Shown in pieces: positions 37,563-61,805 of a stretch of DNA of 64,000 nucleotides. The stretch comes from a virus (taxonomy: Duplodnaviria; Caudoviricetes). The translations under genes and the position numbers were made by a program. The notes below the pieces were generated by a model that saw only the letters and a list, made by a program, of their open reading frames with translations, was not told the DNA's origin and did not search any database. How positions within the stretch are numbered: the first letter of the stretch is position 1; every line of letters begins with the position of its first letter. Location: the IMG/VR virus record IMGVR_UViG_3300011008_002712. The stretch is one strand, 5' to 3'.

Positions 37563-38135
37563 TCATATGCCATAATAAAACAAAATCCTAGGAGAAAGTA
37601 TACTCAAAAAATCTGCCATGCATTCATATGCATAATCTAAAAACATTTGATTAGACAATAAAATCTTTCTTTGAGCTACTCTCACTTTTGATAAATCTCC
37701 AACAAGACGATGGGTAAAATAATCTTTTGGAATAAACATGCTCATGTAAGAATCATTAAAATATCTATATATCTGAAATTCTTTTCCATTACCTCCTATG
37801 CCGCTTGTTTTAGGTTTTCTCATCTGAGAAGCATCAGCATATATAGCAAAAGTGAAATTACTCTTAGTATTACTATGTTTAATGTTTACATGCACAATCT
37901 GTATCTTAATTCTTTCTACTTCTGAAATACAAAATTTTTTGCCATTAGTCCTGTAATCTTTTTTTAGAAAAAGCTTTAATTCATTATAACAATCTCTACA
38001 AATTTTTTTGCCATTGTAAATTTCTTCTTCATTTACAAATGTTGGTGCATAACTTTTTCCATACATGTATTTTGTTGGTTGATTGCATCTAGTACATACA
38101 TCAAAAACTTTTATGATCTCTCTTTTGCTTGGCAT
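37563..38135 (-). CDS. hypothetical protein with zinc ribbon; C-terminal ...LFYYGI tail
   Basis: CTRC and CRDC motifs; GL-like tail. Confidence 0.65.
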   Translation of the reverse strand: MPSKREIIKVFDVCTRCNQPTKYMYGKSYAPTFVNEEEIYNGKKICRDCYNELKLFLKKDYRTNGKKFCISEVERIKIQIVHVNIKHSNTKSNFTFAIYADASQMRKPKTSGIGGNGKEFQIYRYFNDSYMSMFIPKDYFTHRLVGDLSKVRVAQRKILLSNQMFLDYAYECMADFLSILSPRILFYYGI

Positions 38136-38170
38136 GTGATAACTCCTTTTTTATTTAATTTTATCACATT

Positions 38171-38566
38171 TCAAACATTATGTACATTACTAAGCAAATA
38201 CTTCTCAGCATTTTTCTTTAATTCGTGTCCTTTGATATACATTAAAATAAAAGGAATTTTTTCCAAAATACTATCATCGTTAGTTAAAGTGACTTTAGTC
38301 TTAATACTTTCATTTAATACATAAAAACAATCTTCAAAAACAGCAAATTCATAATCATTCATTTTGACTATCCGATATGCTTGGCCAAACTTATGATGTA
38401 TCTCTGAGATGTATATGACATAGCATTCTTTTTCTATCAGCATAAATTTAACATCTTCATCATATAAGATAGTAGAAATCTCATGAGTAAGTACGTTCTT
38501 CATGATTATTTTGTCTGTCTCATAAATGACATTGTATTTCATCAATTGCTCCTTTATTCGTCGCAT
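38171..38566 (-). CDS. hypothetical protein
   Basis: 131-aa ORF. Confidence 0.55.
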   Translation of the reverse strand: MRRIKEQLMKYNVIYETDKIIMKNVLTHEISTILYDEDVKFMLIEKECYVIYISEIHHKFGQAYRIVKMNDYEFAVFEDCFYVLNESIKTKVTLTNDDSILEKIPFILMYIKGHELKKNAEKYLLSNVHNV

Positions 38567-39026
38567 TCCAAAATTTATAAAATCTTTCTATTTTTTCTAT
38601 GCTCGCATTTAAAGGATAAATATGAATAGCTGCTAACCAGCATTCAATCGTATCCCACCAACTGCTTCCAGAAAAAAATATATCGTCTGCAATCTTCATG
38701 TTGATATCATATTTATTTTTATTCCCTTTAATTTTATCAAAGCAATAATATGCATATTGTTGATCAATGTCAAACAATTTCATGTCTATGCTCTCATACT
38801 TTTTAAACAAATCTACTTGTTTGAAAATATCTTTTGCTATCTCCCAAGATAAACTTGATGAAAAATTTTTTTGTTCCATGAATTCTTTTTGAATAGCATG
38901 TAAAGCAATGATTGTACCATTTTTGTCTGTTCTCATGAATTGTCCACCAATACAGACAACATCATCGTCTATTATCATTTCTTTTAATGAATAAAAATGC
39001 TTGCTTTTTCTAAATCTTATTTTCAT
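38520..39026 (-). CDS. hypothetical protein
   Basis: start MKIRFRK. Confidence 0.55.
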   Translation of the reverse strand: MKIRFRKSKHFYSLKEMIIDDDVVCIGGQFMRTDKNGTIIALHAIQKEFMEQKNFSSSLSWEIAKDIFKQVDLFKKYESIDMKLFDIDQQYAYYCFDKIKGNKNKYDINMKIADDIFFSGSSWWDTIECWLAAIHIYPLNASIEKIERFYKFWNATNKGAIDEIQCHL

Positions 39027-39128
39027 AATCCATTTTATTTCCTTTGATTCTATCAAAACAATAATGTGGTCTTAAAATTAAAAAAGACTGTTTTTATGCA
39101 GTCTTTTTTGTTAATCATCATAATCTTA

Positions 39129-39536
39129 TTAAATATATGATCTATATGCACTATCTTCTAAGTCATCTGTAATACTTGCCCAATCTTTTCTGAATTGTTT
39201 AAGATTTGAAAGCAAATTGGAGGTAGCTTCTATTAAAGAATTCAAATTTTCAATAGCTTCATCTCCTGGAGAATATTTTCCATTACCTAAGAGTTAATAT
39301 GCAATTGGTTCTGAAAAATTATCAGTTTCTTTAGCAGCATTACCACATGTAAAATATCTTTCAAAATTTTGTCCATCCAAAATATCATCATATGCTGCTA
39401 ATACTTGTTCATATACAGATACAACTTCTTTTGATTTTCCGTCTAAATCTTCTAAAAAATATTGTAAAGCTTCTTTAGCTTCTTCTGGTACTTCAGCTGC
39501 ACTTTTCTTCTGTAAATGCGATTTGATTGTATTCAT
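39129..39536 (-). pseudogene. hypothetical gene interrupted by an in-frame TAA at 39294
   Basis: frame stays open for another 54 codons after the TAA. Confidence 0.5.
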
Positions 39537-39589
39537 ATTTTTTATCTCCTTATATCATTTCTTTCAATGAATAAAAATATTTACTTTTT

Positions 39590-40243
39590 TCATAATCCAT
39601 GTTCCAATAATTCGAAAAAATTTTTTTCTATCGCCTTATATGTTTTTATGATCCTAATACACTGTGAATAAGTTTTCTCATTATATCTTTTTTGTTTGTT
39701 TAAGAACAAATTTAATCCAACATAATTATTATCTTCATCCATAGTCAGTGTTCTTACAGCATCAATCAAACATTGTGTTTTTGTATAGACATAAACAATT
39801 TCATTCTTATTAAAATTATCTAATACATTCCCAGTAAGTTTATCTATTCTAATTATATGATTTTCTTTTTTTACATCTTCTTCAAAGATATACGGAGAAA
39901 AAAAGTTTCTTGTTATTAATGTCTTATCAAACTGTATCAGAAGAGCAAGATTAACAAACAAATCAATAAAATGATTCCAATAAACAACATCTAATAGATT
40001 GTTATAATGATTTGCTATATCAATTTCTTCTATGGTCAACTTAGATGAATCCATGTCACAAGCTAAGAAATCATATATCATTACTGGAATAACATTAGAG
40101 CCATGCTTTTTAATATAAGCATGGAGATTTTTTTTGAATAAATTTTCTATGTATTTATCATGCCTATCTACATAATCATCTAACCATCTAATTCTAGGAC
40201 ATAATAAATTAATAACAGTTGATCTAATCTCTGAATACTTCAT
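39590..40243 (-). CDS. hypothetical protein with GL tail
   Basis: start MKYSEIR after GAGGT; ends FFELLEHGL. Confidence 0.65.
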   Translation of the reverse strand: MKYSEIRSTVINLLCPRIRWLDDYVDRHDKYIENLFKKNLHAYIKKHGSNVIPVMIYDFLACDMDSSKLTIEEIDIANHYNNLLDVVYWNHFIDLFVNLALLIQFDKTLITRNFFSPYIFEEDVKKENHIIRIDKLTGNVLDNFNKNEIVYVYTKTQCLIDAVRTLTMDEDNNYVGLNLFLNKQKRYNEKTYSQCIRIIKTYKAIEKNFFELLEHGL

Positions 40244-60047: not shown

Positions 60048-60063
60048 GAAAGGAGGCATGGCG

Positions 60064-60090
60064 GAGGAGAGGCAAACAAAGTCTCTCCTC
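60064..60090 (+). terminator. intrinsic terminator
   Basis: GAGGAGAGGC-loop-GTCTCTCCTC plus TTT. Confidence 0.65.
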
Positions 60091-60098
60091 TTTAATTT

Positions 60099-60812
60099 AT
60101 GAAGCAATATACTGTAGAGCAATACATAAATCACCATAAAATTGCAGAAGCAAATGACTGCAAATATTATGCAATGCAGGAAATTATTGAAAGCATATAC
60201 GAAGGCGTTGTAAGGCGAGTATCTTCAAATGAATATATCACAACAGAATATGATTTGTTAAATCCTGAAGAAAATGGTATCATCATGTCTCCTCAGGTAT
60301 CGAAGTACAAATTGTATCATGAAAATGCGATTGAGTATATTAGAACACATCCGTTTTATGAAATAGATAATGATTCAATTGTTATTCAGAAGCCATATAG
60401 TCATGTTAATGATGGGCGAAATGGTGTTCTTATCTGGAGAAAGAATGAAGAGACATTTTTTGATATCAACGGAAAACGACTGGCTATAAGCTTTTCATTT
60501 GAAGGAATTAATGATGAATATTACGATATTGAAAAGACAGTTGATTTCCTGTCCAAACGGAATGACATCAAATTCCTCGATAACAACGCTCCTAAAAGAG
60601 CACAAGTAAATAACCACATTTACAAACTGCGATATGATGATGAGCTTTATGTCGTTCCGGTTTTATGGACTCCCACACAAGAAGAATTTGATAAGATGCT
60701 TGATTTTTTCGACAACGAAGAATACATTGACATACATAAGTTGTTCAACAATTTTATAGGAATAGGAAAATTCATATCACATAAATATAGACTGGAGGTT
60801 GAGAACTACTAG
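60099..60812 (+). CDS. hypothetical protein
   Basis: 237-aa ORF. Confidence 0.7.
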   Translation: MKQYTVEQYINHHKIAEANDCKYYAMQEIIESIYEGVVRRVSSNEYITTEYDLLNPEENGIIMSPQVSKYKLYHENAIEYIRTHPFYEIDNDSIVIQKPYSHVNDGRNGVLIWRKNEETFFDINGKRLAISFSFEGINDEYYDIEKTVDFLSKRNDIKFLDNNAPKRAQVNNHIYKLRYDDELYVVPVLWTPTQEEFDKMLDFFDNEEYIDIHKLFNNFIGIGKFISHKYRLEVENY

Positions 60813-60960
60813 TAGTTGCTACTCTAAAATAACAAAGCCCTACTCCGTACAGTAGTGGGGCTTTTAATGTTTATTCATAAATATCATTTTTCTGAATTTA
60901 ACCGTATACATTATTTATGTTTTTTGATAAAATAATTATGCATAGAAAGTTTGCAAAAAC

Positions 60961-61440
60961 ATGTTTGCAGAAGGAGATATATTCATGAAGAAAAAAATGA
61001 TTAAGTTCATAAATAAAGATAACTCAAAAACACATATTGAATTGGACAGAAAAGACAATATCATATATGTTAAGTTTTATGAGTTGGACAAAATCTTTGA
61101 ACACAAACAAAATGACATATTTCCTTTTAATATAACTTTTATATGTGAATATAGTCAATTTGATATTTTTTATGGATTGAATAACCCATTTATAAAAATG
61201 ATAATTAGCATTCATCAACCAGATACGACAGACGCATCACTATATTACATAAATGTAAGTAAATATATGCGTACATTGAACATTGATGATATTGAACTGA
61301 TACATAAACCAACAAATAATTCAATCAGCAAAAAAACGAATAAACAAGTTGTTGACTATATTCAACAAGATTTTATTACACATGTAAAAAAATATGTATT
61401 AAGTTTTCAAGAAATTATGACTATGTATAAGGGGTTATGA
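60961..61440 (+). CDS. hypothetical protein with GL tail
   Basis: ends FQEIMTMYKGL. Confidence 0.65.
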   Translation: MFAEGDIFMKKKMIKFINKDNSKTHIELDRKDNIIYVKFYELDKIFEHKQNDIFPFNITFICEYSQFDIFYGLNNPFIKMIISIHQPDTTDASLYYINVSKYMRTLNIDDIELIHKPTNNSISKKTNKQVVDYIQQDFITHVKKYVLSFQEIMTMYKGL

Positions 61441-61805
61441 TGGAAAAAATTATCAATTGTAATTTGATTATACAAGATGATCCTGTTTATCTAATCAAAT
61501 TAAAACAAATAAATTTTTATTTAAGCATTGCAGATAAAAATACTAAATATATTAGAGGCAGGAATGTCATTAATGAATTAGCATTTTGTTTTATTATGAG
61601 ACTTATGATTTCTTCCAGTTGCGATTATAACAAAATGTTCCTTGATATAATGCATTGGCCGTTGAATGCAAATAATTTTATCGAAAATTATGAATTCAAC
61701 CCAACTCTTCTGGAAGATCAAATAATACTAAAACATAAAGAATTTTTTATTAAAAACATAGATGATTTTTTTAAAAAATCATGTGTTGAAATGATAGGAC
61801 TATGA
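61437..61805 (+). CDS. hypothetical protein with GL tail
   Basis: ends FFKKSCVEMIGL. Confidence 0.65.
   Translation: MMEKIINCNLIIQDDPVYLIKLKQINFYLSIADKNTKYIRGRNVINELAFCFIMRLMISSSCDYNKMFLDIMHWPLNANNFIENYEFNPTLLEDQIILKHKEFFIKNIDDFFKKSCVEMIGL

Follow-up and report, generated by a model that had tools for sequence, protein, structure and literature searches.

A Position-Exact Gly-Leu C-Terminal Ending on Many Small Proteins of a Clade of Phage-G-Like Rumen Megaphages

The ending and its distribution

A 64,000-nucleotide stretch of the virus record IMGVR_UViG_3300011008_002712 (Duplodnaviria; Caudoviricetes), referred to here as the window, encodes far more proteins ending in Gly-Leu (GL) than chance would provide. 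Ten of its 110 called genes end this way, against about 0.4 expected (Poisson P ~1e-11), and an eleventh GL gene (50111-50431) is broken by a TGA. In the genome as a whole, 33 of 540 genes end in GL against 1.9 expected (P ~2e-29), and 42 of 540, about one gene in thirteen, end in Gly followed by Leu, Met, Ile or Phe (G[LMIF]); genes were called with a custom codon-and-ribosome-binding-site script, and all of these counts are approximate. A preliminary description of the window had listed 13 C-termini of this kind, variants included, and all 13 were recovered with the residues and the varying codons reported for them. The ending is therefore confirmed as real, strong and clade-specific, and it is larger than first noted.

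The same description gave the motif as F/Y-x(5-8)-G-L. Its Gly-Leu core stands, and the pattern can be refined to a hydrophobic residue at -7, Ile, Val or Leu at -6, two free positions, often a hydrophobic residue at -3, Gly, and a last residue drawn from Leu, Met, Ile and Phe, directly followed by the stop. In the set chosen for a terminal G[LMIF], hydrophobic residues stand at -6 in 67% of proteins, at -7 in 74% and at -3 in 59%, and within the 42 genes of this genome -6 is hydrophobic in 86%. Phe or Tyr occupies -3 in 31%, and aromatic-Gly-hydrophobe is the commonest ending. Lineages differ in the last residue they favour, and GY or GV is the ending of some clustered genes. The position of the motif is exact: 188 proteins have G[LMIF] as their last two residues, as compared with 11-19 proteins at each of offsets 1-15, which is at or below background, and control phages are flat throughout. 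These counts support the conclusion that the ending must sit at the very C-terminus. The 126-residue product of one G[LMIF] gene, 8215-8595 (minus strand), has a GF end and a body matching the central part of a 561-residue protein in a relative; it is probably a chance member.

Proteins with the ending, here called carriers, are even more numerous in a related 504-kb phage (98 of 705 genes), and further related records have 38 of 355, 12 of 146 and 3 of 84. By contrast, only background numbers are found in Bacillus phage G (5/659), in a 379-kb relative (4/407) and in a fragment close to phage G (1/199). Two carrier-free fragments belong to a tail-rich lineage, with median identities of 84% and 100% to the record that has 38 carriers, and seem to lack the variable region of that lineage. 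The ending is confined to one clade of phage-G-like rumen megaphages. We found no mention or description of it in the literature searched as open-access full text, including the Moose phage W30-1 paper and jumbo-phage genomics papers.

The window is part of a single phage record of 416,024 bases with 29.7% GC, whose terminase shares 58% identity with gp1 of Bacillus phage G. The record agrees in gene order and gene lengths, at a constant offset of 3,945 bases, with the annotation of Moose phage W30-1, a phage of 419,969 bases from the moose rumen (PMC12484599). The carriers at 39590-40243 and 37563-38135 correspond to ORF391 and ORF395 of W30-1, both annotated "Hypothetical," as is every carrier that could be checked in that annotation. 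The phage is an uncultured relative of Bacillus phage G. The record has a 100-base end repeat; tblastn of the record returned nothing for the genes of the major capsid and decoration proteins, nor for about nine more core genes that every relative possesses. Because these core genes are missing, the record is probably incomplete despite the end repeat. A published remark puts the failure to find the W30-1 capsid protein down to divergence (PMC12484599). Among the relatives, however, this protein is 74-90% identical, and an assembly that is incomplete or was falsely circularised would account more simply for its absence.

Carrier proteins, detachable tails and the level of selection

Most carriers are soluble proteins of 90-130 residues, basic (median isoelectric point 8.7) and encoded by AT-rich genes (GC 23-27%). 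Only 4 of 153 have cross-genome matches, compared with 264 of 663 other small proteins, and purifying selection is weaker on them than on their neighbours (pN/pS 0.23 vs. 0.10 for 7 and 27 genes; p 0.001). They are clustered in tandem, together with duplicates and broken copies, and none was found among 73 genes of virion modules or 122 genes of the replication block. Overall, this shows that most carrier genes are small, evolve fast, turn over by birth and death, and lie outside the blocks for virion and replication. Orthologues at about 30-50% identity nevertheless keep the ending, and a profile search with the family of the gene at 48305 retrieved two further relatives, both ending in GL.

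The bodies of the carriers had initially been described as unrelated. In Smith-Waterman comparisons against reversed-sequence controls, with the last 12 or 25 residues removed, cross-genome local-alignment scores of the bodies equal those of the controls (mean 2.06 vs. 1.98 nats), and 140 of 168 carriers are singletons at a strict cut. That part of the claim, the lack of detectable sequence homology, is borne out. However, the first 40 residues are richer in strand formers than those of other orphans (p 4e-14), and the last 25 residues have a higher helical moment (p 1e-5), so that a strand-rich start and an amphipathic C-terminal helix are common to them; "unrelated" was an overstatement, and most carriers may be one hyper-divergent family. 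No significant Pfam or PHROGs family was found for the small carriers, and ESM Atlas feature searches with carriers gave no usable match.

One small carrier was folded, the 100-residue GL protein encoded at 48305-48607 (minus strand). Its AlphaFold2 model (predicted local distance difference test, pLDDT, 77) consists of a helix, a four-strand meander and a long C-terminal helix (residues 77-98) followed directly by G99-L100. Searches with this model in BFVD, the Atlas and PDB returned common alpha/beta arrangements and no fold family; the best match has Z 7.8, and KA1-like domains and phosphoglucomutase domain 4 are among those found. Expansions of small genes are familiar from phage G, which has about 35 zinc-ribbon copies (PMC7824862) and the multigene families gp102 and gp336 (10.1101/2024.12.16.628780, Supplementary Table 1). 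The carriers resemble such jumbo-phage expansions in their small size, in their clustering, and in the birth-and-death turnover of dozens of genes within one phage-G-like genome. The phage G expansions, however, are recognisable by sequence, whereas the carrier bodies cannot be aligned and have only their last seven residues in common; phage G itself, the one cultured relative found, lacks the motif.

One carrier lies clearly outside any fold that the small carriers may share. The 213-residue protein encoded at 48612-49253 (minus strand) had been noted as resembling uracil-DNA glycosylase (UDG), and this is correct at the level of the fold: its model (pLDDT 85) matches MUG, TDG and UdgX in Foldseek (E 4e-5), 29 PDB chains match at E <= 0.001, with those listed all belonging to the UDG superfamily, and there is a weak match to Pfam PF03167 below the cut-off. 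Although it shares the fold of this superfamily (MUG/TDG/family 4), it is only 10-14% identical to its members, falls into an unnamed subfamily and carries an extra tail; any glycosylase activity is putative. The appended tail, about 13 residues ending in GL, lies outside the UDG domain, and these last 13 residues are modelled at low pLDDT.

In a tree restricted to the UDG domain, four homologues with the tail group together with support of 97/91; this clade spans about one substitution per site, and the middle residues of the tail change across it while the tail itself is retained. A fifth homologue has a similar end after an insert of about 35 residues, and its sister sequence lacks the end. 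Whether bacterial homologues lack the tail had been suggested as a check; three phage homologues at equal distance are without it, as are all distant homologues. A second case is a 152-residue gene product (genome offset 136330) with a 13-residue extension ending in GL that is absent from the paralogue at 51218 in the window. These comparisons support a tail that is detachable and that has been appended to the UDG-fold enzyme and to one other paralogue. Tail-less UDG genes often lie directly upstream of a carrier in relatives, so that capture of a tail by deletion would be an easy route.

The synonymous variation at the ending had been taken to favour selection on the protein, and this is borne out by several tests. 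Each of the four Gly codons and three stop codons occurs at the tail, together with several Leu codons, and no consensus follows the stop. The DNA 9-mer of the ending is enriched only in frame at stops (33 vs. 2.4 in codon-shuffled controls), without enrichment off frame (28 vs. 63) or antisense (30 vs. 44). No same-strand gene lies within 12 nucleotides for 106 of 190 carriers, the choice of Gly codon is independent of coupling (p 0.39), and orthologues in a close relative differ synonymously within the tail. Since the tests of frame, coupling and synonymous change agree, selection acts at the level of the protein. A DNA-level feature at gene ends, either a translational-coupling signal or a recombination site, had been named at the outset as an explanation that would refute the tag. 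It would fit the mild over-use of GGG and TGA and under-use of CTT at the tail, but with conservation neither independent of frame nor linked to coupling, no post-stop consensus, and no enrichment in phage G at the same GC content, it is scarcely tenable.

Possible roles of the ending

We tentatively put first the reading that the self-capped C-terminal helix is a common handle for one partner inside the infected cell. A pocket of the partner would take the terminal hydrophobic residue together with the free carboxylate and so bind all carriers, presumably early or midway through infection, and the variable, strand-rich bodies would bind different targets in the host or in rival phages. If the tail is such a handle, it would open 8-14% of this megaphage clade's genes, otherwise unannotated orphans, to biochemistry through one common point; it would also amount to a seven-residue portable tag and would show giant phages plugging many fast-evolving effectors into one machine.

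The likeliest partner that can be named, although in itself an unlikely one, is the phage's own remodelled ClpX (L009:6988-8190, plus strand) working with host ClpP, in which case the carriers would be interchangeable adaptors or timed substrates. Most of the weight of the handle reading falls on some other intracellular partner. In both tail-negative complete genomes, those of phage G and of the 379-kb relative, clpP adjoins a canonical clpX. In the tail-positive lineages, by contrast, clpP was found neither beside clpX nor elsewhere in the available sequence, and ClpX lacks the RKH loop; the pore-2 Thr is also missing in three of four of these lineages, including this phage. The zinc-binding domain, the GYVG loop and the ClpP-docking GF loop are retained. 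In Escherichia coli ClpX, the RKH loop and the pore-2 Thr read the ssrA terminus, and the pore-2 Thr binds its carboxylate (PMC7652416). It is rather improbable, though conceivable, that the clade swapped its own ClpXP for a reprogrammed ClpX, host ClpP and 40-100 small interchangeable adaptors. Were this so, adaptors with a variable target-binding body and a constant Gly-Leu-COOH handle would constitute phage-encoded modular targeted degradation, with a logic like that of F-box receptors.

The carrier ending is like the ssrA degron in being short, position-exact and at the extreme C-terminus with a hydrophobic last residue, and this phage encodes both ClpX and a tmRNA (L003:12721-13050; tag ANEEYAIAA). 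It differs in that the ssrA end is Ala-Ala and requires about five residues without structure (PMC7652416), whereas carriers end in Gly-hydrophobe after a helix, and in that the ClpX of this phage lacks the RKH loop and the pore-2 Thr of the ssrA reader. The tail of the UDG-fold protein, longer and modelled at low confidence, is unlike the two free residues of the 48305 model. The adaptor SspB has a C-terminal ClpX-binding peptide that follows a flexible linker, whereas the carrier end follows a helix. If ClpX is the reader, docking in the manner of an adaptor would be a better fit than a direct degron. In co-folding, two copies of the phage ClpX with the 48305 protein scored 0.00 in a run without controls, which is evidence neither way. 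The genome also carries 12 tRNA genes (L002:377-8454).

Several observations weigh against a handle, or against ClpX as its partner. The residue pattern of the ending is fully explained by a Schellman cap, and in the 48305 model the last helix is part of the domain. The tail of the UDG-fold protein is dispensable, as the 504-kb phage with its 98 carriers has a tail-less UDG orthologue. A distant orthologue of the 217-residue GL protein at 39590-40243 (minus strand) keeps the last helix without the Gly-Leu end, which must accordingly have been gained or lost by substitution. The correlation between ClpX and the tail represents a single evolutionary transition, and the RKH loop is also absent from 9 of 57 other ClpX proteins on phage contigs. 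E. coli ClpX needs about five unstructured terminal residues (PMC7652416) and the 48305 model leaves two free, so direct entry into the pore is unlikely. The absence of ClpP from this incomplete record is, taken alone, weak evidence, and profiling of gene content between tail-positive and tail-negative genomes revealed no obvious reader.

The cap itself provides an alternative that is possible, if somewhat doubtful: there would be no reader, and most carriers would belong to one hugely expanded, hyper-divergent family with a strand meander and a C-terminal helix, with Gly-Leu inherited as a Schellman cap. The final residue would pack against its own protein or against the oligomer which that protein forms, and the larger carriers would be fusions with members of this family or chance cases. 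A Schellman loop with a hydrophobic triangle has Gly at C' and hydrophobic residues at C3, Ccap and C'' (PMC9951308). These correspond to positions -2, -6, -3 and -1 of the ending, where its Gly and its hydrophobic peaks lie, and an amphipathic helix precedes them, as seen in residues 77-98 of the 48305 model and in the raised helical moment of the last 25 residues. The clustering of lengths at 90-130 residues, the common strand-then-helix tendency, the tandem clusters with duplicates and pseudogenes, and the ease with which a tail could be captured beside UDG-like genes all agree with such a family. However, nothing in a cap obliges the protein to end at C'', yet no enrichment of extended versions is seen; in ordinary Schellman caps the chain continues, whereas about 190 proteins of the clade terminate precisely at C'', and the ending also appears as an appendage on unrelated proteins. 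The tail of the UDG-fold protein is short, lies outside the fold and has been retained over long distances, and no positional homology between bodies rises above the reversed controls. Even as a cap only, the ending would mark a small-protein expansion that homology search cannot see and that ranks among the largest and most divergent seen in a phage.

Capsid loading had been among the functions first suggested, and we consider it unlikely. In this reading the ending would be the C-terminal equivalent of the T4 capsid targeting sequence, and carriers would be packed into the prohead and then injected to act against defences. The T4 sequence, found on internal proteins IPI-IPIII, is N-terminal and is cleaved by the head protease. 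Small, basic, hypervariable and dispensable proteins with a short constant terminal tag are the profile of the T4 internal proteins, and a glycosylase would be a plausible injected effector. Unlike the T4 signal, the carrier ending is strictly C-terminal and occurs on about ten times more genes, and the basic composition may reflect only AT drift (GC 23-27%). Tail genes are absent from virion modules, and several of their clusters follow sigmaA-type promoter-like sites. There is, moreover, a separate N-terminal motif of the MKRLxKK type on 16-43 proteins per complete genome of the phage G group, whose carriers include head-cluster genes and phage G gp346, reported in particles; this motif and the GL ending avoid each other (3 vs. 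11.3 expected, p 0.002).

The MKRLxKK-type start is a candidate head-targeting leader of the phage G group. It is found on 22 genes of this genome, 43 of the 504-kb phage, 22 of phage G and 16 of the 379-kb relative, with 0-2 in controls. Examples here lie at genome offsets -54568, 136330 and 320801, and a related start is found at 51218-51670 in the window; in phage G the motif occurs on gp13, gp17, gp38, gp334, gp336, gp346, gp347 and gp351. Import into a replication (nuclear) compartment, another of the functions first suggested, has no support, the phage being phage G-like and no search for a shell protein (chimallin) having been made.

It is quite improbable that the last three residues mimic the IGF/IGL loop docking on host ClpP, or act as a degron for a host protease that reads C-termini, such as Prc/CtpA or FtsH. 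Position -3 is hydrophobic in 59% of the proteins, the ends IGL, FGL and IGF occur, and the clade has no ClpP of its own, but about 40% of the proteins are polar or charged at -3, and the IGF loop is internal and multivalent rather than a free terminus. A host reader would have been equally available to phage G, which lacks the tail, and a search for phage PDZ and S41 protease genes found none. Still less probable is a pro-form for conjugation, in which the last residue would be clipped to expose Gly as in the Atg8 family, or a membrane-targeting amphipathic helix of the MinD type. The prevalence of aromatic-Gly-hydrophobe ends and a last helix that is amphipathic and, in the 504-kb phage, often basic would suit one or the other. 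However, no ThiF/E1 or JAB gene was found in the available sequence of five phage records, many tails of this genome contain acidic residues, and the 48305 model ends in a packed helix, not in a strand with a flexible Gly tail. Ubiquitin- and Atg8-like modifiers have a beta-grasp fold, whereas the 48305 model, representing one protein, runs helix, four strands, helix.

Tail-gene clusters and other features of the genome

Two tail-gene clusters of the window are faced by a divergent pair of sigmaA-type promoter-like sites (49627-49712) with the variant -35 sequence TATGTACT. The leftward unit (minus strand) begins with a 117-residue tail-less protein (49250-49603), homologues of which are encoded just upstream of the UDG-like gene in several relatives. 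The same strand carries, besides the UDG-fold gene and the 48305 gene, a frameshifted tandem copy of the latter (48030-48300), the 3' part of which still ends in GL; comparison with a close relative, which has three copies, shows this copy to be intact there. An 83-residue carrier (47761-48012) ends in GL, with a synonymous Leu codon in the orthologue of a close relative, and an 88-residue carrier (47493-47759) ends in GM, where a distant syntenic orthologue ends in GL.

On the plus strand, a 110-residue GL carrier is encoded at 49782-50114 (its start had initially been placed at 49764), followed by the 106-codon GL gene at 50111-50431, which has a TGA at codon 49. This gene had been read through the TGA to reach its ending. 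The GL end is indeed present, but recoding is ruled out in favour of an ordinary nonsense mutation, as a close relative has TGG at this codon and a third of all genes use TGA as their stop. The third gene (50434-50706) encodes a 90-residue carrier whose syntenic orthologue, at about one-third identity, keeps the GL end; a word-index search with it returned only the self-match.

The variant promoter-like form precedes tail operons at 5 of 6 sites, whereas the common form does so at 5 of 56 (Fisher p 2e-4), with the caveat that the variant pattern was defined after the sites had been seen; in the 504-kb phage the common form is used at tail clusters instead. The promoter-like sites suggest early or middle expression by host polymerase, and no late-promoter motif could be defined from the structural genes. 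The common promoter-like cassette, with -35 TATTTACA and an extended -10, is long and nearly identical before many small operons, with 56 looser sites genome-wide and, in the window, copies at 5418, 10729, 13727, 24967, 25417, 26051, 27733, 29037, 34521, 34970 and 53420. T4-type phages possess promoter cassettes that shuffle genes, and the repeated cassette can be likened to these.

Other carriers of the window include GL proteins of 151 residues (60985-61440, plus strand) and 121-122 residues (61437-61805, plus strand), and the 190-residue GI protein at 37563-38135 (minus strand), which has an N-terminal Cys-pair part resembling a zinc ribbon and four homologues in the 504-kb phage (23-30% identity), all ending in GL. 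The 71-residue GL protein at 14732-14947 (minus strand), which is ORF431 of W30-1, matches a tail-less protein of another phage over its N-terminal 25 residues. Just past the end of the window (L001:17260-18819, minus strand) lies a gene for a 520-residue GL carrier whose 53% identical orthologue in the 504-kb phage keeps the ending; by eye, its N-terminal part resembles a SprT-like domain with a zinc ribbon, without HExxH and without a Pfam match.

Recent duplications also occur among tail-less genes, namely 19878-20321 with 20272-20670, 25054-25374 with 34613-34942, and 57424-57750 with 58728-59045. The gene at 7398-7745 (minus strand) begins with a leader of the FVTNSSSSS type that recurs in at least eight other genes of this genome, several of them beside a radical-SAM gene. 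An SLH-plus-porin protein of the OmpM type is encoded by the phage (L002:5071-6312, plus strand); it suggests a Negativicutes host and might perhaps serve in surface remodelling or superinfection exclusion. An M16 zinc peptidase with an intact HxxEH (L018:6615-7850, plus strand) adjoins the terminase gene and is kept in phage G (gp2) and in all relatives. Adjacent genes at 27807-28994 and 29123-31036 (minus strand) look by eye like a split ADP-ribosyltransferase of the WGR/PARP type, and NAD-salvage genes are present in the window, comprising a nicotinate phosphoribosyltransferase (22585-23796) and a PnuC-like transporter (~54594-55178).

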